From IMG/VR virus record IMGVR_UViG_2531839524_000004: a stretch of DNA of 64,000 bases, one strand, 5' to 3'. Shown piece after piece: positions 3,434 to 17,051 of this stretch (the stretch's first letter is position 1; each line of letters opens with the position of its first letter). Under the pieces are notes generated by a model. That model made no database searches. It was not told the DNA's origin and saw nothing but the letters and a program-made list of their open reading frames with translations. The DNA is from a virus (Duplodnaviria; Heunggongvirae; Uroviricota; Caudoviricetes). The translations under genes were made by a program, and so were the position numbers.

Positions 3434-4201
3434 TTATGCCGCGCTAACACTATGTTCAGTCCTAACCACCCCAACCTTCACAAAAGGGCTACCGTAGCTT
3501 GGTGGCTTCTTGATTAATTTGCCTACATACAGTTTTCTAATATGCTCATCGGCTATTCTGCCAACAAATTCATAACGTTTTGTGTCGGGGCCAAGAGCTA
3601 TATCCCTTGTAAAGTACTGCTGAGAACCGGCTTTGACCCAGCATTCAATCTGATAAACTTCCATTATCAGCCCACCATATGTAGCGTAGGCATATTTGAG
3701 ATTCTCGTCTCTTGGAACCTTTGCCCATACGCCACGCGTAGCTTCATATAATGCCAGAGCGGACATTCCTGACTTGTAGGTGCTGTTTAGCAGGAAGGCA
3801 AGACCGGCGTGCTCAGGAGCAATTTCAGTTTCCTCTTGCAGCACTAAGTGATGGTAGGCGTCCAGTGATATTCTGCCCATCATGGAACCACTTCCTCGTA
3901 CCTTATTCGTAAGCTCTCCGACCCCCATAAGGTCGATGCATGTCGCCTCAACAAGTTTGGCTGTGGTTTCATCCATACCATGACGAAGTATATCTATGCC
4001 TAATTTTTTATTAGCCAAAAGTTCTTTGATCCGCATGGATTTGGGAGAGTCATCGGGATACTTGATGTGATCGAGACAACGAGTCGATTTGCCTTTTCCT
4101 ATGTAAAACGGTCTTTTCATCTTGTCTTCTGTATCATAGAGACAGTAAACATAGTATTTAGCCTTATCCAATGATCTCGCGTATACCGATAAATCGTCCA
4201 T
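3434..4201 (-). CDS. GIY-YIG-type nuclease domain protein (possible homing-endonuclease-like)
   Basis: N-terminal YVYCLYD...FYIGKGK...R motif typical of GIY-YIG; 255 aa; isolated minus-strand gene. Confidence 0.55.
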   Translation of the reverse strand: MDDLSVYARSLDKAKYYVYCLYDTEDKMKRPFYIGKGKSTRCLDHIKYPDDSPKSMRIKELLANKKLGIDILRHGMDETTAKLVEATCIDLMGVGELTNKVRGSGSMMGRISLDAYHHLVLQEETEIAPEHAGLAFLLNSTYKSGMSALALYEATRGVWAKVPRDENLKYAYATYGGLIMEVYQIECWVKAGSQQYFTRDIALGPDTKRYEFVGRIADEHIRKLYVGKLIKKPPSYGSPFVKVGVVRTEHSVSAA

Positions 4202-5268: not shown

Positions 5269-6609
5269 ATGACCGAACTTTGCCATACAGGACGCGGGCT
5301 GTCCGAAGAGTTTGATGAAGATTTCCAGAACAGACTGACGGCATATTTTTGTCGTGATCACGAGTTTCTTACTCGTGCGGGAGATCTGGTTGTGCCTAGC
5401 CAATTTGCCAATGCGGCCAATGCCATATTGGTTAATATGGTTTCGGGCTATTACCGTATGTACAAGAGCGCGCCCTCTTCATCTGCAATTCTGGATATGC
5501 TTAAGCGTGCGAAACGCGATAAGACTATCCGTGAGGAACTATTCGCCGATGTTGTTGCTGCGTTTAAGCGCATTCTTGCAGAAAAATTGTCCGATACCTC
5601 GTACATGGTTGACCAGGTATCAACCTTCGCAAAAAGTGTAGCGTTTGATGATGCTCTGATTAAGGCTGCTGAACTGAAAGAGAAAGGCGACTTTCACGGG
5701 GCGATGGCAATCATGGCCAAGGTTCAGCAGATTGGATCGAACGAAGCGACCGGAATCTATGACTACTACACCTCCGCAAGTGAGCGATTGAAAGCGCGTG
5801 AATATGAGGCTTCAGAGGAGTATGTACCAAACAGTATTACAACTGGACTCCCTCTTCTCGATAGGTTGCTGTACCAAAAAGGCTGGGCAAAGCGCGAAAT
5901 GGTGCTCTTCATGGGGTTCGCTAAATCCGGTAAATCGACCGCAATGGGTGAGTTTTCCATAAACGCAACACTTGCTGGCTACAATGTTCTGTATCTCTCG
6001 CTGGAGGTTCACACCACCATTTTATCCGACCGTTTTGATGCAAGATTGTCGGAGACGGAAATGTCCAAGTTGGTGGAACGGCGCGATGAAGTTCATCGCA
6101 AGTTGGCAGAGTTGGGAGCTACGAAGGGTATTGGTAGTTTGTGGGTTGTTGAGCGTCCGTCAGGAAGTATGTCACCGGCAGATCTGGACCGTATGCTTAA
6201 CAGCATGAAAGCCAACGGCATGGTGCCTGACATGGTTGTTGTCGACTACGCAGATTTGATGCGTGCCAGTTATGACCTTCGTGATGATCGCGCCAACATT
6301 CGTAGTATCTACACCGATTTACGTGCTCTTTATGACAAGCATAACGTTGCTGGGATCACGGCATCGCAGACAAACCGTGAAGGTGGCGCGTCAGAAGTTG
6401 CCACAATGATGCACGCTGCCGACAACATCGAAAAAGTACGTATTGCTGACCTGGTAATAACGATCAACAAAACCGAAGAAGAAGAAGCGAAAGGAGAGGC
6501 TCGTCTCTACTTTGCTGGTTCACGTAACCAGCAGGGAGGGATCAGCATTCGCGTTAAACAAAACCTCGAACAAATGCGCTTCATTGAGCGAATCTTAGAC
6601 GTTACCTAA
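5269..6609 (+). CDS. DnaB-like replicative DNA helicase
   Basis: 446 aa; C-terminal RecA-like domain with Walker A GFAKSGKST and DnaB-like architecture; conserved leader AAAGGAAAGCACATG. Confidence 0.8.
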   Translation: MTELCHTGRGLSEEFDEDFQNRLTAYFCRDHEFLTRAGDLVVPSQFANAANAILVNMVSGYYRMYKSAPSSSAILDMLKRAKRDKTIREELFADVVAAFKRILAEKLSDTSYMVDQVSTFAKSVAFDDALIKAAELKEKGDFHGAMAIMAKVQQIGSNEATGIYDYYTSASERLKAREYEASEEYVPNSITTGLPLLDRLLYQKGWAKREMVLFMGFAKSGKSTAMGEFSINATLAGYNVLYLSLEVHTTILSDRFDARLSETEMSKLVERRDEVHRKLAELGATKGIGSLWVVERPSGSMSPADLDRMLNSMKANGMVPDMVVVDYADLMRASYDLRDDRANIRSIYTDLRALYDKHNVAGITASQTNREGGASEVATMMHAADNIEKVRIADLVITINKTEEEEAKGEARLYFAGSRNQQGGISIRVKQNLEQMRFIERILDVT

Positions 6610-6690
6610 AAAATAAGCGTGGAGAACACCTCCACGCTTGATTCATTGGTGAAACAACTTTTCTTTTGCCAAACCACAAAAGAAAAACAC

Positions 6691-7872
6691 ATGAGCCTTT
6701 ATGTTATATCAACATTTAGGTTGGTCACAATATTGCCTGTTAAAAGTGGAATTATCGTGAGCGAGCTGAAAGAGCTAATTACCGAATTAGATTTTGAACA
6801 ATGGTTGGATACTGAAGGTATCGTTTATCGACGTGGAGGCGTGAGTACTCGCGGTCGTGAAGTGAATATCAAGGAGTGTCCGGTATGTGGCAGCTCCAAC
6901 TGGAAGGTATATTTCAATCTGACCAGTGGCGTCGGTAAATGCTTCGCTGGTGATCATCCCGAAGAGATTCAGTTCAATAAGCTGGTCTTCCTCAAGCACT
7001 ACAGCGGCAAATCACGACGACAGTTCGAGGAATATGTGCAGAACGCCCTTCTTTCCCAGGGGTGGGCACCAAAGAAAGAAGAGCTAGTGCTTGCAAGCAC
7101 AGTCGAGTTAGAGGGGCCAGTTGCACTCCCTCGTCATTACGAGCTTCCTATAGATGGTCGTCTTCCAGACTATCTGGTTGAACGAAACATATCGCCTGAA
7201 ATGGCAAAGTATTTTGACCTACGATACTGCGTCGAAGGCAAGCACGCCTATGTAGATCCGTATACAGATCAGGTTAAAGGACAGATATTCGATATGCGAA
7301 TACTGATACCGGTTTACGATCTGGATGGGGTAATGAAGACATTTCAGGGACGAGACATTACCGGTACAGCAGAACGTCGCTACCTCTTTCCTATGCAGCT
7401 TCCAGCTTCAGGTAAGTTTCTCTACAACGGCCATAATGCAGTCGGCAAACAGACGGTAGTTGTCTGTGAGGGGGCGTTCGATGTTATGGGGGTCAAACGA
7501 GCTATTTTTGACGAAGAAACATTACGTGATTACGTGGAACCAATAGGAACGTTCGGGATGCATCTATCTGGCAACACCACTCAGGATGCAGAAGATCAGC
7601 TGGGCGCGTTCCTGACGCTCAAGGCGCGTGGATTACGTAATGTGATCATGATGTGGGATAGTGAAAAGCAAGCTATACGCAACACTATGGCCGCAGCTAG
7701 GCGACTCACAAGTATTGGCCTTAATGTCAAAGTTGCGTGTTTGGGCGAGGAAGGACTCGACCCCGGCGATGCGACACCGGGGCAGATTATCAAAGCCTAC
7801 TATTGCGCAAAACCTTATTCACGACAGCTTGAACTCTTAAGCAAGGTGAAAGGCATTGCAGCACTAGTTTGA
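6691..7872 (+). CDS. DNA primase (zinc-ribbon plus TOPRIM)
   Basis: CPVCGS...C...H zinc-binding motif and TOPRIM-like VVVCEGAFDVMG; start chosen at ATG 6691 preceded by conserved AAAGAAAAACAC leader. Confidence 0.7.
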   Translation: MSLYVISTFRLVTILPVKSGIIVSELKELITELDFEQWLDTEGIVYRRGGVSTRGREVNIKECPVCGSSNWKVYFNLTSGVGKCFAGDHPEEIQFNKLVFLKHYSGKSRRQFEEYVQNALLSQGWAPKKEELVLASTVELEGPVALPRHYELPIDGRLPDYLVERNISPEMAKYFDLRYCVEGKHAYVDPYTDQVKGQIFDMRILIPVYDLDGVMKTFQGRDITGTAERRYLFPMQLPASGKFLYNGHNAVGKQTVVVCEGAFDVMGVKRAIFDEETLRDYVEPIGTFGMHLSGNTTQDAEDQLGAFLTLKARGLRNVIMMWDSEKQAIRNTMAAARRLTSIGLNVKVACLGEEGLDPGDATPGQIIKAYYCAKPYSRQLELLSKVKGIAALV

Positions 7873-8901
7873 ACCAGTATTAGTCACGTAAACATTGACC
7901 GAAAATGATTTAACTTCTGTGTTGAAGTTGTCAGTCATTACCGCGAGGTAGGCATTCTTGGTATCTCTGAATTGCTTCAGGATGATTTGAACGTTATCGG
8001 TGCAAACAAACGAGGTAGCCAGATTGCCTCCTTTCTCTGAAAAATCCTTTAGGAAAGTGCAGTCAATTTTGCCATCATTAGCGGTGAAGGTGGCATCATC
8101 ACCCTGCCAGGTAAATGTTGCGTTAACGCCTTTATCAATGGATTTAGCAATAAGTCGCTGAGTGGAGGATTTTGCTTTAGATCTTGCTGCTGATGGTTGG
8201 TATTTACCGCTTTCTTTTAGTTCTGCAATGTAATCACAGCCATTTTTATCTTCTTTATCGCAAGCTGCCTGATAAAGCTCAGCTGCTTTTTTATAATCTT
8301 TTTTAACCCCTTCACCATACTCATACATAATGCCAAGATTCGCCAATGCAGATGCACTGCCTAGTTCGATTCCTTTTTTATAATACTCTATTGCCTTTTT
8401 GTAGCTTTTTGGCACGCCTGCGCCAACATAATATAACTGTCCTAGATATGACGCAGATTCAGGGTCGCCAGCCTCTACTGCAAGTTTGTGATATTTCAGG
8501 GAAAGTTTTTGGTCTTTCTTACCCGCAAGTCCTTTATGATAAATAACACCCAGATTGTGATAAGAGTTGCCTCCAGCTGCATCACCAGCTTTCTTAAAGA
8601 GTTCCTCTGCCTTTTTGAAATTTTTATCAACCCCATACCCAAGGGCATACATTATACCTAGAGCATTAAACGCTTCTTTGTTCCCCTTAGAAGTCGCCAG
8701 TTCAAGCCATTTTCTGGCTTCATCGTAGTTTTTTTCGACACCATGAATACCTTTCATATAGTCGATACCTAAAGCACTCTGTGACTCAACGTCGCCTGCT
8801 TTTGCCGCATCGATCAGCTTTTGTATTTCATAGGCATGTGCACTCCCCGAAACAAGTAATAGCGACAACATAAAGAAAGATATTGGTTTGAAATGTTTCA
8901 T
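7864..8901 (-). CDS. secreted Sel1-like repeat (SLR/TPR-like) protein with extra C-terminal domain
   Basis: N-terminal signal peptide MKHFKPISFFMLSLLLVSGSAHA; multiple repeats with A-G-x-x-Y-x-x-G pattern typical of Sel1 repeats. Confidence 0.7.
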   Translation of the reverse strand: MKHFKPISFFMLSLLLVSGSAHAYEIQKLIDAAKAGDVESQSALGIDYMKGIHGVEKNYDEARKWLELATSKGNKEAFNALGIMYALGYGVDKNFKKAEELFKKAGDAAGGNSYHNLGVIYHKGLAGKKDQKLSLKYHKLAVEAGDPESASYLGQLYYVGAGVPKSYKKAIEYYKKGIELGSASALANLGIMYEYGEGVKKDYKKAAELYQAACDKEDKNGCDYIAELKESGKYQPSAARSKAKSSTQRLIAKSIDKGVNATFTWQGDDATFTANDGKIDCTFLKDFSEKGGNLATSFVCTDNVQIILKQFRDTKNAYLAVMTDNFNTEVKSFSVNVYVTNTGSN

Positions 8902-9082
8902 TTTTGGATTTTCACAAGATGGTTAGGTGGTTGTGGCTACTCGGTGTAAGGCTTTGTAATCACCGATTGGTAAGGTTACTTCAATTTAGCTTAACTGTCA
9001 GCATACCCAATCGCCGAAAAGATAAGTAGATGATTACTTATTAGTGTGTAAGAATACTGCCATCTGTTAGCTAGGAGTTGGT

Positions 9083-9932: not shown

Positions 9933-10403
9933 GTGAAAGCTGATTTGTCAAAAATCCCTTCTATTTCAGGAAATAACGGTTATTCACTTCGTTGTGAGGA
10001 AGTAAAGATAAACGGTGAGTCGGCATATTGCAGCTATTCCGTTTGCCAGCACACCATTCTTGCCTTCAAAGAAAACCGTCTTCCTCGAACTTCTTTCCAG
10101 TCGTGCGCAACCGCTATCAAAGCAGGCAAATGCAAGGCGTTAAAAATGATGGTTGAAGAGATTCGTAAAGGAGAATCTCTGTATTTCGAAGATATGACCG
10201 CGCTCATTAAGGAGGTTGAAGAACGGAATAAACAAGCCAGAACTATAAAACGAAAACGTGACAGTGTAACGATTAATAGCATGGTTAAGAAGAGCACCAC
10301 ATCACAAACAGCGATCACTGACGTGTATGCGGCGTTGCTTGAAGAAACAACAAAAGAAACACATGAGCAAATCGATCAACATATGGAGGCAAAACAACAA
10401 TGA
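9933..10403 (+). CDS. hypothetical Cys-rich protein
   Basis: ORF overlapping ligase start; several N-terminal cysteines; start codon uncertain (GTG in track). Confidence 0.4.
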   Translation: MKADLSKIPSISGNNGYSLRCEEVKINGESAYCSYSVCQHTILAFKENRLPRTSFQSCATAIKAGKCKALKMMVEEIRKGESLYFEDMTALIKEVEERNKQARTIKRKRDSVTINSMVKKSTTSQTAITDVYAALLEETTKETHEQIDQHMEAKQQ

Positions 10404-11722
10404 AAAAGTTGATCGCACTTAAGCATAAGCTGGACGAAATGAAAGCTATGGGAACCAATGCAAAAAAAGAGGCATTGGCCAACATGGATGACTTCGAGCA
10501 AAGCATGGTTTCATTGATGCTCAACCCTTTCATCCGTTTTGGGGTAAAGAAATACAAAGTGGCAGAGCCGCTTAGTGAGTCCGTCCCAAGTGACGAAAAA
10601 GCCATTGATATACTGAATAAGCTGGCCTCTCGCGAGCTGACGGGGAACGCAGCAATAGCTGCTGTTGAGTCTATCGTGGCGTCAATGTGCGCCGATGGGC
10701 AGGACGTGTTCCGTCGTTTCCTCTTAAAAGATCCGAAAGCTGGCGTTGGGATTAGCCTATGTAACAAGGTTTTTGAAAATCCCATTCCGAAATTCGAGGT
10801 GCAGCTGGCGTCACCGTATAAAGAAAAAGGCGACAAATACCCCTTCAAGCCAAATCCTAAAGCCAAATGGCCGATGATTGGCAGTCTTAAGCTCGATGGT
10901 TTGCGAGTAATTTGCGAGGTTATTGTTGACGAGGAAGAGGTTAACTTCCTTTCTCGTACTGGTAATCCAATCACGTCTCTCGATCACCTAAAGCCAGCCA
11001 TGCTCGAATTAGGCAAACTTTCAGGCCACAAACACATCTTCTTCGATGGTGAAGGAACTGCCGGTTCATTTAACCAGTCCGTATCTGCATTGCGCAAAAA
11101 GAACGTGCAGGCAATTGGCGCTATTTATCATGTTTTCGACTTCTTCCTACCGGAATGGCGAGCACAGGCTAAATCCAAAGAGTATGCAAAGACAGGTATG
11201 AAGCTGAAAGAGCGCCTGGCTATGCTGGTGGCGTTGTTCAAAAACGATCGCAGTGAAGGCTACACACAAGACATTCACCTGCATCCGTTCTATATCATCC
11301 ATAGCCACGAAGACTTCATCGAACGCTTCATGAAACGCCTGGACGATAACGAAGAAGGGGAGATGGGCAAAGATCCGAACTCTGTTTACGAGTTTAAACG
11401 TACCCGCAGCTGGTGGAAGTTAAAAGACGAAGATTCAGAAGATGGTGAAATTATCGACTTTGAGCCGGGCGACCCGGACTCTGGTTTTGCCAACACACTT
11501 GGAAAAATTGTTATTCGTCTTGAAAACGGCGTCATCGTTCGTGCGAGCGGTATTAAGCATAAATATCTGGACGAGATCTGGAACAACAAAGAGAAGTACC
11601 GTGGTCGTATTGTTGAGGTTCATTGTCACGAGAAAACACCGGATGGCAGCTTACGCCACCCCCGACTGAAATGGCCGCGTTGCTTACGCGATACAGAAGA
11701 TCGAATCGGAGATAAAGAATGA
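10400..11722 (+). CDS. ATP-dependent DNA ligase
   Basis: Adenylation motif I KLDGLR (KxDGxR) in PMIGSLKLDGLRV; length about 440 aa. Confidence 0.8.
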   Translation: MKKLIALKHKLDEMKAMGTNAKKEALANMDDFEQSMVSLMLNPFIRFGVKKYKVAEPLSESVPSDEKAIDILNKLASRELTGNAAIAAVESIVASMCADGQDVFRRFLLKDPKAGVGISLCNKVFENPIPKFEVQLASPYKEKGDKYPFKPNPKAKWPMIGSLKLDGLRVICEVIVDEEEVNFLSRTGNPITSLDHLKPAMLELGKLSGHKHIFFDGEGTAGSFNQSVSALRKKNVQAIGAIYHVFDFFLPEWRAQAKSKEYAKTGMKLKERLAMLVALFKNDRSEGYTQDIHLHPFYIIHSHEDFIERFMKRLDDNEEGEMGKDPNSVYEFKRTRSWWKLKDEDSEDGEIIDFEPGDPDSGFANTLGKIVIRLENGVIVRASGIKHKYLDEIWNNKEKYRGRIVEVHCHEKTPDGSLRHPRLKWPRCLRDTEDRIGDKE

Positions 11723-13862: not shown

Positions 13863-14016
13863 GACACAGCGTTGAGCGGTTTGGCCTTTTAATCAACTCG
13901 ATTAAGACTCCGCTAACATAAACCAGACCGCTCAACGCTGTGATAGATAATTACGGCAGACGTTCTTAACCATAGCTTGCTAACATCCTAGCAACACTTT
14001 TTTCAGCGCAAAATTC

Positions 14017-14041
14017 AAAGGGGCTTCGGCCCCTTTTTTGT
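14017..14041 (+). terminator. rho-independent terminator closing the tRNA cluster
   Basis: GGGGC-TTCG-GCCCC followed by TTTTTT. Confidence 0.8.
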
Positions 14042-14054
14042 TGAACAGTGCAAT

Positions 14055-15317
14055 TTACTTTGCATAGTCGCCCAATTTTAATATTTCGCGCTTATATTCA
14101 TTAACCATGCTACTGGATTCAGTATAAATTCGATTTAAAAGATTATCGTTATCTTTATTTTCATTTATCTTAATTAGTGCTAATTTATATTCATAGTCAT
14201 CAAATGCCACAATTAAATGGTGGCCTGGGATTATATCTTCGTCACTCTTAAAGTATATATCTTCAAGTATGTAATCTAGTTGATTAGATTTTCTTTTCTC
14301 GATGTAATCTTCAGCCATAGCTATTACATCATTCCTGTCATTTAACCTGTTTTTTTCGGAAGGCACATCTTCGTAATGTTGCACGATTGAACAACCAATA
14401 AGGCGTGGGATGTAAACGTCAAAATGAGTAACTCTATCATTCGCGGTTTTAAGTAGTTCCTCAAAGTAGTTTCTTACATGTAAAGGCAACTTCTCAAAGT
14501 AATCATTAATTATAGGAGAACAAGGAGTTTTATAATTCATAAGAACCGACGGTACGAGCTTTGGGTGTCGAAACATCCAGTCCCTTTTAACGTCCGATGG
14601 AACATAATAACTTTTAATGATATTATCAAAATAATTTATCATTCGAGATTTGAATATTTTGTTGAATCTAAGGTTTATGAATGTATCCAGATAAGGCATA
14701 TTTGAATAAGCATCATCAAAAAATATTTCATCATTGAAAAAATCATATTTATTCAATAAACAACACAGTTTTTCCGAATTAATATGTTCACAATAATCGA
14801 TTTTTAATCCAAAGATAGCAATGATCAACTTCATCTGAGGTGGGATTTTAAAAATTAATTGTGACACATACGCTCTTTTTTCCTTGAGACATTCCCCATC
14901 AATATAAAATGAACCATCCACATACTCAAATATATTAATAATATGCTTCACATACTGTATTACCTCATGCTGTCTTACCAATGGATAATATAGTCTATGT
15001 AACTCATCGCTGTTTAAATTAATTTTGTGTTTATCGATAATTTGTTTTGCAAGAAGACATAACTCATCATGTTGATTTAATAAGGAATCAAACCATTGTT
15101 TAAATGCACTCTTTCGCATTTCGAACAATGATTCAGTTGTTAATTGAAGGGCTGAAAAAGCTGCTTTTGCACTTTTTCTCGCTTCGTAGGCATTCCATGC
15201 TGTTGCTATAAAAGCAAATGCTGTAGCCAATGTTCCAACAGTTTGACCATTTAAAACAACCCAATCCCAAAAAATGACGGTGAGCAGTAGTATAATAATG
15301 AAAATTAAAAAAGGCAT
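14055..15317 (-). CDS. membrane-anchored hypothetical protein, strongly AT-rich accessory gene
   Basis: 420 aa; two N-terminal TM helices; base composition much more AT-rich than flanking genes; isolated on minus strand. Confidence 0.6.
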   Translation of the reverse strand: MPFLIFIIILLLTVIFWDWVVLNGQTVGTLATAFAFIATAWNAYEARKSAKAAFSALQLTTESLFEMRKSAFKQWFDSLLNQHDELCLLAKQIIDKHKINLNSDELHRLYYPLVRQHEVIQYVKHIINIFEYVDGSFYIDGECLKEKRAYVSQLIFKIPPQMKLIIAIFGLKIDYCEHINSEKLCCLLNKYDFFNDEIFFDDAYSNMPYLDTFINLRFNKIFKSRMINYFDNIIKSYYVPSDVKRDWMFRHPKLVPSVLMNYKTPCSPIINDYFEKLPLHVRNYFEELLKTANDRVTHFDVYIPRLIGCSIVQHYEDVPSEKNRLNDRNDVIAMAEDYIEKRKSNQLDYILEDIYFKSDEDIIPGHHLIVAFDDYEYKLALIKINENKDNDNLLNRIYTESSSMVNEYKREILKLGDYAK

Positions 15318-15491
15318 GTATGTATTTCACTCTACTAACTATAAAATATTAGGCTAATGTTAACCAAACAATGCCTTAATTAATAGATTGATCGAGGCTT
15401 TAATAGCTTTATAATGCAGACTGTAAAGATAAGTATGCACATACCTATCTTCTTTGTAAGTAAAGTTGCATATCAATTCTATGAGGTAACA

Positions 15492-15737
15492 ATGACGATC
15501 ACTATCTACGGACGAGATAACTGCTCATACTGCAAACGTGCGGTCGAGCTGGCGAAGCAACTAAAGGGACATGGCTACGGTGATTATGAGTACATCGACA
15601 TCACCACTGCCGGTATCGACAAGGAAAAACTAAGTGAAATTGTTGGTAAACCGGTAGAGACTATCCCCCAAGTGCTGATCGATGGCCAACCGATTGGCGG
15701 ATACACAGAACTGGCTGCATACGTCAGCACCCTCTGA
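15492..15737 (+). CDS. glutaredoxin/NrdH-like redoxin
   Basis: MTITIYGRDNCSYCKRA with CxxC active-site motif; GAGG RBS 4 nt upstream of ATG 15492. Confidence 0.7.
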   Translation: MTITIYGRDNCSYCKRAVELAKQLKGHGYGDYEYIDITTAGIDKEKLSEIVGKPVETIPQVLIDGQPIGGYTELAAYVSTL

Positions 15738-15741
15738 TTTT

Positions 15742-15766
15742 AACGGCTCACAGGAGCCGTTTTTAT
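15742..15766 (+). terminator. rho-independent terminator
   Basis: AACGGCTC-acag-GAGCCGTT followed by TTTATT. Confidence 0.65.
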
Positions 15767-15947
15767 TCCCACCAAACTCACTCCCGTTTCCCTTAAAATT
15801 CAAAAAACAACGTCAAAATGATTCCATACCTACTATGTATGGAATCATTACTGAAAATGAGTTACTTTGACTCTTGATCCTATAAGAATCTATGCCTAAT
15901 ATACTGTTTACTTATACAGTGAATCGGCGTAACTCGGTGATTGTCAT

Positions 15948-17051
15948 ATGAAAAATAGCTTTGACAGAGCACGCGCTGCGGAGAACACCTCAAAAGAGGC
16001 GATTGAGTATCTCGAAAGAGCATCTCAAATGCAGGCCGTTATGATCTCGCAGGTTAGCAATGATATGAGATTCTCGGACGCATTCATGTTATTTACTCGC
16101 TTATCTCTGCTGATAACAAGACGTCGGCCGGAGATCGCTGTTCATTGTATTTTGATACATGTTTTGCCGCACATTGCTGATGTAAAAGTAAGTGACATTA
16201 ATAGGTTCATGGTGAACCAACTGGTCAACCCCCTAATACTGGATGGCAAAATTGTTATGGGCCGCCGCGTTTTCTCTCTGATGAAGCAGTTCCTTAGCTG
16301 GTGTGCCTTCCAGGGGATGATCGACGTGTCACCGTTAAACGATATGTCACTAAACAAAGTTGCCGGTGGCGCAAAGCCCACGCCTCGCGAGCGGAAGCTA
16401 ACCGACGCAGAGGTATGGGTGTTCTGGAATATATGGGACTACTTCAATGTGTGCGCTGGTACAAAATGGGCGGCCAGGCTATGTCTTGTATCCGCAAGAC
16501 GACCTGACGAAGTACTGCGGGCTAAAAAAAGTGAGTTCAACCTCCAGCGTGGGGTTTGGAATCAAGGCAAGAGAAACAAATCAGCCCGTGAGCATTCTCT
16601 GCCTTTAAGCACATTAATGCGCACATGCATTGAAGAGTTATTCGAATATGGTAAAGGCAGCCAGTGGCTTGTGCCTTCGAATAAAAAAATCGGGAAAGAT
16701 CTTCCGATGTCTAAAGTGGCAATAGCCCAGGCATTACGCCGTATCCTGGAACGACCAGAACTGATGGAGCTTGAGCCATTTACACCACGAGATTTGCGTC
16801 GTACTGCGCGTAGTTACTTCCCAGCATTAGGCATAAGCCAGGAGGTATCACGTAAAATCATGAACCACAGTCTTGAGGGGATAGATCGGGTCTACGACCG
16901 GCACGATTATATGGACGAGATGCGAGACGCCTTAGAAAGTTTCTCGACGTACATCGCATCAATCGTAGAGCAACCGGATTTAGACGAAATTGACCACAAA
17001 TTCAAGGGAGATCGTCTATCGACAGAGCTTATTCGTGTAAATTTTTCATAG
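15948..17051 (+). CDS. tyrosine recombinase / phage-type integrase
   Basis: C-terminal catalytic region with DLRRT box and NHSLEG...RVYDRHDY (His and Tyr nucleophile); first His of HxLRR appears to be Arg. Confidence 0.65.
   Translation: MKNSFDRARAAENTSKEAIEYLERASQMQAVMISQVSNDMRFSDAFMLFTRLSLLITRRRPEIAVHCILIHVLPHIADVKVSDINRFMVNQLVNPLILDGKIVMGRRVFSLMKQFLSWCAFQGMIDVSPLNDMSLNKVAGGAKPTPRERKLTDAEVWVFWNIWDYFNVCAGTKWAARLCLVSARRPDEVLRAKKSEFNLQRGVWNQGKRNKSAREHSLPLSTLMRTCIEELFEYGKGSQWLVPSNKKIGKDLPMSKVAIAQALRRILERPELMELEPFTPRDLRRTARSYFPALGISQEVSRKIMNHSLEGIDRVYDRHDYMDEMRDALESFSTYIASIVEQPDLDEIDHKFKGDRLSTELIRVNFS

Follow-up and report, generated by a model that had tools for sequence, protein, structure and literature searches.

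The Sel1 solenoid is a protein-binding surface. In Pseudomonas aeruginosa, the Sel1 protein PA3978 inhibits the lytic transglycosylase MltF by direct binding (PMC10746161) and PA5086-PA5088 inhibit the phospholipase PldB (Tle5b), likewise by direct binding (PMC6099711), while in Klebsiella pneumoniae Sel1E neutralises VgrG4 by direct binding and has an uncharacterised C-terminal extension beyond its repeats (PMC7108748). Here, we describe the Sel1-barrel gene, which lies on the minus strand of a 64,000-nucleotide stretch of Caudoviricetes DNA (IMG/VR record IMGVR_UViG_2531839524_000004; hereafter the window), among the replication genes of a phage-plasmid. Like PA3978, PA5086-88 and Sel1E, which are exported or act in the periplasm, its product carries a few Sel1 repeats and is predicted to be exported, and, like Sel1E, it extends C-terminally past the repeats. 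Unlike their genes, which adjoin the effector or sit in the host core genome, the Sel1-barrel gene is stand-alone phage cargo, and no cognate effector lies beside it in any phage or plasmid context examined. Because its C-terminal domain, a small β-barrel, has no detectable relative outside its own family, the Sel1E extension is not detectably related to it.

We regard the anatomy of the gene and its status as phage cargo, set out below, as highly likely to be correct. That it encodes a bona fide Sel1-repeat protein is already known, and the protein is present in databases. New with respect to databases and literature are the barrel domain as a unit, the combination of Sel1 repeats with a barrel, and its recurrence as cargo of three types of temperate phage. 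As to function, we tentatively propose, by analogy, that the product may be a periplasmic binder or inhibitor, of an immunity type, directed at an envelope-attacking enzyme or toxin.

Anatomy of the gene and its product

The gene and its parts are as follows.

7864..8901, minus strand: Sel1-barrel gene, full coding sequence (345 aa, ATG start, stop codon at 7864-7866)
8833..8901, minus strand: predicted Sec (signal peptidase I) signal peptide, residues 1-23 (features of the n-, h- and c-regions, -3/-1 rule)
8206..8832, minus strand: Sel1-like solenoid, residues 24-232, with an N-cap helix, five Sel1 repeats and a C-cap helix (Pfam, AlphaFold2)
8158..8205, minus strand: basic low-complexity linker, residues 233-248, isoelectric point ~10.5 (modelled as disordered; variable alignment columns)
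7867..8157, minus strand: eight-stranded β-barrel, residues 249-345, with Cys281 and Cys300 on adjacent strands (no Pfam family)
8973..9001, minus strand: promoter-like block CTGACA-N17-TAACCT, ~72-100 nt upstream of the ATG

The coding sequence is the longest open reading frame (ORF) at the locus. An identical protein, WP_001718051.1, occurs in pRM13322 under the RefSeq name 'tetratricopeptide repeat protein', E. coli RM13322 and G749 are examples of carriers, and the PHROG assignment is phrog_8741, 'unknown function'; the searchable literature holds no mention of these protein accessions or of the PHROG, and phage-plasmid surveys are silent on the gene. The initial annotation, made from the sequence alone, had described a signal peptide followed by multiple Sel1 repeats and an extra C-terminal domain, and this layout is backed by the signal-peptide features, Pfam and AlphaFold2. 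It had also suggested a domain search, which returned five Sel1 repeats in Pfam and no match for the C-terminal domain, and had named the lack of a signal peptide, or kinship with a cytoplasmic chaperone-type tetratricopeptide repeat protein, as observations that would speak against it; a signal peptide is predicted, and no link to such a chaperone emerged. It did not recognise the C-terminal barrel as the distinguishing portion of the protein, with the highest conservation, nor the allele in the window as a rare recombinant five-repeat form.

The barrel is the most conserved portion of the family proteins, and every full-length member that has the domain carries it C-terminal to Sel1 repeats. 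Even with the threshold relaxed to E<=1, Pfam returns nothing for residues ~249-345, and a HMMER search of 1.84 billion representative proteins placed the barrel in only eight clusters, one of them spurious; no Klebsiella relative was found in this exhaustive search. An AlphaFold model of the barrel alone is a disulfide-bonded, eight-stranded barrel, with a mean predicted local distance difference test score (pLDDT) of 85 and a predicted template modelling score of 0.74. Its surface displays the invariant residues N260, W265, N275, D280, N303, Q305, K309, N316, Y318 and D324. Could such a barrel sit in the outer membrane, as in OmpX, Lom and NspA or in the TPR-plus-porin proteins PgaA and BcsC, and tether the solenoid there, for example to mask a phage receptor? 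The domain spans ~97 residues, and its strands measure 7, 6, 6, 12, 7, 7, 7 and 14 residues, so that six of the eight have only 6-7 residues against the at least 9-10 required of the outer-membrane type, charged residues make up 10 of the 66 strand positions, and none of 14 variants ends in the C-terminal F, W or Y that serves as signal to the β-barrel assembly machinery. On these grounds, namely short strands, their charge and the lack of a β-signal, an outer-membrane barrel of the OmpX/Lom/NspA type was rejected, and we consider an outer-membrane anchor very unlikely.

N-terminal to the barrel, Pfam PF08238 (Sel1) matches with an E-value of 1e-37 and 127.6 bits against a cutoff of 30.7 bits, over five repeats. 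From an alignment of 11 family members, AlphaFold2 predicts a solenoid of helical repeats for residues ~24-232 (pLDDT >90), with 12 paired helices across residues 17-230. The last repeat carries the conserved pair Cys214/Cys222 (C-x7-C), a spacing like that of Hcp proteins. The linker, residues 233-248, is poorly conserved across the family. Assignment to the named NCBIfam equivalogs MotX, ExoR, AlgK and MerG was rejected, with scores of 15.7-41.8 bits against cutoffs of 330-700.

Searched against PDB sequences, the repeats match the Sel1 proteins 6ok3, EsiB (4bwr, E 3e-46) and HcpC (1ouv, E 2e-37), and an Oxalobacter Sel1 protein scores above both EsiB and HcpC. These matches bear on a host-interaction or virulence role of the EsiB/Hcp/LpnE/EnhC type, in which the protein would be released through vesicles, lysis or leakage, or exposed at the surface, and would bind a eukaryotic or immune ligand, as in lysogenic conversion of the classical type. 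EsiB and HcpC are among the best matches, the C-x7-C pair of the last repeat is Hcp-like, and the carrier plasmids come from human or animal gut or clinical isolates. The matches, however, reflect the Sel1 consensus, over the repeats only, rather than orthology, with the Oxalobacter protein scoring better; the gene comes with neither a secretion system nor a surface anchor, Pantoea and Leclercia from plants and the environment have homologues too, and there is no pathotype association, just 61 of the 5,426 complete genomes of E. coli carrying the gene. We therefore judge a role of this kind improbable.

Export is predicted from the N-terminus, which reads MKHFKPISFFMLSLLLVSGSAHA followed by YE, with predicted cleavage at AHA/YE between residues 23 and 24. 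Specifically, the n-region holds two lysines, K2 and K5, the best 10-mer of the h-region has a mean Kyte-Doolittle hydropathy of 2.56 (a heuristic reading), A occupies positions -3 and -1, and residues 1-19 of the AlphaFold2 model have a pLDDT <50. The layout of the signal peptide, though not its sequence, is retained in most of 14 family variants inspected, with cleavage-like sites VNA/D, ARA/D, SYA/G and SHA/E in relatives; Leclercia-type N-termini (loci L012, L037 and L038) are hydrophobic and lack a clear AxA site. Additionally, the family has four invariant cysteines, which make up two plausible pairs, C214/C222 within the last repeat and C281/C300 on adjacent barrel strands, as would suit an oxidising compartment. 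Taken together, Sec export and cleavage of the Sel1-barrel protein are predicted. Some variants, on a Pantoea sp. App145 plasmid (L010 9044-10300, LLGC) and at L033 5059-6300, have a lipobox-like Cys in the signal peptide; in this sequence context a few family members may be lipoproteins rather than soluble periplasmic proteins.

The sequence CTGACA-N17-TA(A/C)CCT is the only conserved block in the otherwise unrelated upstream regions of five distinct alleles, chromosomal copies included, where it precedes the ATG by about 70-100 nt, and the pattern occurs once in the 64-kb window against 0.01 occurrences expected. Exactly one block, correctly oriented, lies upstream of the gene in L001, L003, L004/L013, L006, L007 and L009; it accompanies the gene at each of its Escherichia, Enterobacter, Citrobacter and Pseudenterobacter loci, and no block was found in empty or remnant loci, so that it travels with the gene. 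The block resembles a sigma-70 promoter whose -35 element is good and whose -10 element is weak, and would thus serve as promoter. A scan for consensus promoters and terminators missed it because its -10 element agrees with the consensus at just 3 of 6 positions; the scan detected no terminator for the gene either. The spacer within the block (…AAATTGAAG…) is conserved beyond what -35 and -10 elements need, and its GTAAC/CTAAA half-sites are reminiscent of a CpxR box; an additional regulator acting here is possible. At the Sel1-barrel gene, Rfam detected no RNA element, and the fold of the 5' untranslated region is ordinary (z = -1.1).

The gene as accessory cargo of temperate phages

The window is an SSU5/Cyrano-like phage-plasmid. 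Its replication block matches 358 plasmids, mostly of ~110 kb and non-mobilizable, from Escherichia, Enterobacter, Salmonella, Citrobacter and Klebsiella. Phages matching this block are PhiR41_1, Cyrano and CMS-2020a of E. coli and SSU5 of Salmonella. The window shares 92-98% identity with the three E. coli phages and ~77-79% with SSU5; over positions 30000-54000, identity is 97.9% across 84% of the length to Cyrano and 76.5% across 76% to SSU5. The surroundings of the Sel1-barrel gene are as follows.

5269-6609, plus strand: DnaB-like helicase gene
6619-7872, plus strand: primase gene, convergent with the Sel1-barrel gene
7864..7872, no strand: tail-to-tail overlap of 9 nt between the Sel1-barrel and primase genes, also present in Enterobacter and Citrobacter elements
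7819..9017, no strand: variable cassette relative to the empty site of PhiR41_1, which measures 65 bp there (pairwise blastn breakpoints; annotated empty site L002)
10400-11722, plus strand: ATP-dependent ligase gene

The placement among replication genes, which had been noted at the outset as unexpected, is confirmed by Pfam, which identifies the neighbours as a DnaB-like helicase, a primase and an ATP-dependent DNA ligase. The cassette includes the last 18 primase codons (7819-7872, plus strand), which are unrelated to the primase end in PhiR41_1, and has a guanine-plus-cytosine (GC) content of 41.0% against 44.7-47.6% in the flanks. The Sel1-barrel gene itself has 40.7% GC and, at third codon positions, 36%, compared with 46-51% in the helicase, primase and ligase genes.

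Phage PhiR41_1 is collinear with the window and lacks the gene, as does Cyrano. The barrel domain is encoded in 91 of the 358 related plasmids, 60 of them from Escherichia, 22 from Enterobacter and 8 from Citrobacter, and in none of the Salmonella and Klebsiella plasmids among the 358; in the 61 positive genomes among the 5,426 complete E. coli genomes, it is each time on a plasmid. Furthermore, 24 IMG/VR viral contigs encode the barrel, most of them SSU5-like with the gene beside the primase gene. Its absence from deposited phage genomes is not meaningful, because only four E. coli SSU5-like phage records exist. The E. coli element pLR-62-2_1 (L008, 214 kb) retains only a remnant, the last 138 bp of the gene. 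At L008 4001-5148, two ORFs of 177 and 82 aa without Pfam match replace the gene and its phrog_4248 neighbour; this replacement indicates that the site is a hotspot for exchange.

The SSU5/pHCM2 supergroup of phage-plasmids has a variable 'shell/cloud' gene pool (PMC7969092). The Sel1-barrel gene falls in the variable pool of this supergroup and is an accessory 'moron' cargo of the SSU5-like phage-plasmid. An all-against-all BLASTP comparison of neighbours from nine contexts found no conserved partner gene other than a primase fragment, and the lack of a neighbour common to the contexts points to a protein that works alone. The 185-aa neighbours in Pantoea and in L014 were considered as a common partner and rejected, being unrelated. 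A divergent 137-aa ORF (phrog_2320, no Pfam match) accompanies the E. coli 381- and 417-aa alleles, at L003 5244-5657 on the plus strand (pLH09-a-C) and in L018-L032; it is missing from the window allele and from the Enterobacter and Citrobacter alleles.

Could the gene instead take part in replicating the phage-plasmid? Its place between the primase and ligase genes is kept across genera, which speaks for such a part. The protein, however, is predicted to be exported and could not act on cytoplasmic DNA, and related, apparently functional phages, PhiR41_1 and Cyrano, do without the gene, so we reject a replication role. A functionless, decaying passenger is at odds with strong purifying selection (below), with an ORF that is intact at almost all of ~40 loci and with its being kept independently on chromosomes. 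These two possibilities, a replication part or a decaying passenger, are together extremely unlikely.

Scans of IMG/VR and metagenomes added further contexts. At L033, a member of the phrog_8741 family occupies the tail module of a P2-like myovirus, flanked by the tail-tube gene on one side and by the tail chaperone, tape-measure-like and gpD genes on the other, and in viral contigs L036-L038 and the Leclercia chromosomes L011 and L012 the gene directly follows tail-tip or tail-fibre genes at the end of siphovirus-type prophages. Positions within the tail module or after the tail fibres are classical for morons. The gene is intact in the Leclercia metagenome-assembled genome (L012) and in L036-L038; in Leclercia adecarboxylata NCTC13032 (L011 9247-10288), the copy is split into two ORFs of 142 and 197 aa and is therefore probably a pseudogene. 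The carriers of the family thus include at least three types of temperate phage that are unrelated to one another, namely SSU5-like, P2-like and siphovirus-type.

Chromosomal copies also occur elsewhere. In Escherichia whittamii (L009 7554-10942), a 419-aa Sel1-barrel gene with its promoter block lies in an islet flanked by IS3 elements, in the region from yciB to yciA/tonB. A 146-aa ORF of this locus shares 72 residues, 85-89% identical, with the C-terminus of the phage-plasmid primase, and this fragment beside the gene indicates that the islet is a retained piece of a phage-plasmid. On the Pseudenterobacter timonensis chromosome (L004 7768-15894), the homologue sits among CdiA-like fragments, a NERD-domain gene and insertion sequence elements. 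The CdiA-like fragments there carry Fil_haemagg_2, one of them being a 778-aa fragment with PT-VENN that is followed by a 127-aa putative immunity gene, and the locus looks like an orphan toxin/immunity array. In Pantoea, the gene lies on the chromosome or a megaplasmid among metabolic genes.

The family exists in forms with five, six and seven repeats, of 345, 381 and 417-420 aa, separated by whole units of 36 residues. The five-repeat allele of the window is rare, being found in 3 of 5,426 E. coli genomes at >=80% of its length. Alignment with the common 381-aa allele gives 94% DNA identity and ~99% protein identity for the barrel together with the last repeat, after which protein identity falls to ~50%; synonymous divergence is 0.18 in the barrel and ~2.2, which is saturated, in the Sel1 region. 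This collapse of identity and the contrast in synonymous divergence reveal a recombination mosaic, with a constant barrel and exchangeable Sel1 modules. The ratio of nonsynonymous to synonymous divergence (dN/dS) is 0.03-0.11 in the barrel and, where measurable, 0.13-0.15 in the Sel1 region, so that purifying selection acts on both domains. The upkeep of an exported protein under purifying selection, on three phage backbones and several chromosomes, argues for an advantage to the carrier cell, and the Sel1-barrel gene probably benefits the carrier bacterium. Additionally, the shuffling of alleles over a constant barrel is compatible with changing target specificity.

Other genes of note lie elsewhere in the window. 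A 420-aa ORF at 14055-15317 on the minus strand, without Pfam or PADLOC match, stands between the ligase block and glutaredoxin/integrase genes, where the AT content of the window peaks (34.8% GC for 14001-16000); the ORF looks like a further cargo gene at a second variable spot. Upstream of the helicase gene, a LEM-3-like GIY-YIG nuclease gene (3434-4201, minus strand) is present in related plasmids too.

Candidate functions of the Sel1-barrel protein

In the inhibitor role that we tentatively propose, the gene would be a self-contained moron, antisense within the replication module and probably transcribed from its own sigma-70-like promoter. Its product would be exported via Sec, shed the 23-residue signal peptide and fold in the periplasm with two disulfides. 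The mature protein would be a two-module binder, in which a five-repeat Sel1 solenoid is joined by a flexible basic linker to a small eight-stranded barrel. Acting alone, it would bind and neutralise a protein that works in the periplasm, possibly a peptidoglycan hydrolase, a competitor toxin delivered by a type VI secretion system (T6SS), by contact-dependent inhibition (CDI) or as a bacteriocin, or an enzyme of a superinfecting phage, and the carrier cell would be protected.

An inhibitor role is suggested by analogy with the three periplasm-acting Sel1 proteins introduced above, which inhibit an enzyme or toxin by direct binding. The fold of the barrel is common to several periplasmic inhibitor and immunity proteins; like the PliC/MliC fold, the predicted domain is an eight-stranded antiparallel β-barrel of ~100 residues that would lie in the periplasm. 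A Foldseek search of viral models matched stand-alone phage barrels, one annotated as a putative lysozyme inhibitor, a resemblance at the level of the fold. The CdiA-rich Pseudenterobacter locus is a pointer to a toxin link, and a shuffled binding module over a constant barrel is the expected pattern if target specificity changes. The suggestion in the initial annotation that the gene is a lysogenic-conversion factor holds up in part, in that it gains indirect support from the accessory cargo status, that is, from the antisense orientation, AT-rich composition, variable presence, promoter-like block and occurrence in two other types of temperate phage.

Several results weigh substantially against the inhibitor role. 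With regard to the barrel, a Foldseek search of its model against PDB returned nothing significant, and its fold matches are generic for small eight-stranded barrels, the top ones being domains of unknown function (DUFs), a haemoglobin linker and Cap15. Membership in PliC/MliC (PF09864) was rejected, as Pfam, a comparison of the barrel profile with PDB sequences and hhalign were all negative. Specifically, hhalign of the barrel against an MliC alignment built in this analysis gave a probability of 0.2%, and the motifs SxSGAxY and Y/FxxxxKG (FWSKG), invariant in the MliC alignment, are absent from the barrel alignment. The Sel1 region matches the immunity proteins of the PA5087 type (5jjo/5jkp) at E ~1e-7 to 1.5e-6, over the repeats only, compared with 1e-51 for generic Sel1. 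As for genomic context, none of the phage settings examined links the gene to a toxin or hydrolase partner, the toxin-rich neighbourhood in Pseudenterobacter stands alone, and immunity proteins of the CdiI kind do not normally reside in the periplasm. Finally, the dN/dS values of barrel and Sel1 region give no sign of positive selection, and the Shine-Dalgarno sequence of the gene is weak or absent. As a separate observation, a known defence system was considered and rejected, PADLOC having given a sub-threshold, non-specific PtuA match (E 7.6e-4, 0 stretches).

Much of the same evidence would suit a tuning of the host envelope, in which the protein would bind an endogenous envelope enzyme or sensor and alter wall turnover, stress signalling, the surface, adsorption or lysis. 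Predicted export and a protein-binding solenoid serve this explanation as well as the inhibitor role. Periplasmic Sel1 adaptors include ExoR, which works with ExoS, and MotX in the flagellar T-ring, and the weak NCBIfam similarity to MotX, ExoR, AlgK and MerG points to this broad class. PA3978 acting on MltF is a precedent, the occurrence of the gene across Escherichia, Enterobacter, Citrobacter, Leclercia and Pantoea would suit a conserved host target, and purifying selection acts on both domains. Yet the NCBIfam scores lie far under the cutoffs (31-42 bits versus 330-700), and the Sel1 region is ~50% different between alleles within one species, which is unexpected for a single conserved housekeeping target. 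On balance, host tuning appears somewhat unlikely.

The inhibitor role can be taken further. In such an extended form, the family would comprise phage-borne, stand-alone periplasmic clamps of an 'orphan immunity' or inhibitor kind, with variable Sel1 recognition and a constant, PliC-like plug for inhibition or anchoring. Lysogens would then be shielded from T6SS, CDI or bacteriocin effectors or from the wall-degrading enzymes of superinfecting phages, and alleles that differ in repeat number or by recombination would retune specificity. We consider this fuller version doubtful.

E. coli, Enterobacter, Citrobacter, Salmonella and Klebsiella commonly harbour SSU5-like phage-plasmids, of which thousands have by now been sequenced and which are monitored as vehicles of resistance and accessory traits, and the Sel1-barrel gene is a recurrent cargo of such elements. 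If protection against competitor toxins or phages proves true, the protein would represent a new architecture among phage-delivered envelope defences, and a domain that databases do not describe would gain a function; if it is just another Sel1 adaptor, the finding is ordinary. The gene is easy to study, being stand-alone and small, with natural carrier and non-carrier relatives, and nothing about it contradicts current understanding.

Comparison with known barrels, Sel1 proteins and morons

The periplasmic inhibitors of lysozyme or other hydrolases PliC/MliC, PhiA and the Neisseria protein ACP, as well as the Bacteroides T6SS immunity protein BtaiB, have no sequence relationship to the barrel, and they are single-domain proteins, whereas the barrel is always fused to Sel1 repeats. 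The fold of the barrel is also common to DUF4251, DUF1842, Cap15 and avidins, which are unrelated.

EsiB (c5321 of extraintestinal pathogenic E. coli), the cysteine-rich HcpB/HcpC of Helicobacter and LpnE/EnhC of Legionella resemble the Sel1-barrel protein in having a signal peptide and tandem Sel1 repeats, and the Hcp proteins also in the C-x7-C bridge of a repeat. Unlike these proteins, which lack a barrel, the Sel1-barrel protein carries one, and its repeats have a Cys pair in the last repeat only. Moreover, the Sel1-barrel gene is phage-borne, and the similarity to EsiB, Hcp and LpnE is at the level of the repeat consensus, without orthology or evidence of a eukaryotic target.

The classical envelope morons, namely lambda Bor and Lom, the superinfection-exclusion lipoproteins Cor/Llp, Gifsy-2 SodC and T4 Spackle, have no sequence or fold relationship to the Sel1-barrel protein, and the combination of Sel1 repeats with a barrel is not described for a moron product. 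In its genetic organisation, however, the Sel1-barrel gene is like these morons, in that each is a single gene of atypical composition with its own promoter (here putative), inserted between or after phage modules, including after tail fibres, with an exported product (here predicted) for the envelope of the lysogen and a patchy distribution.

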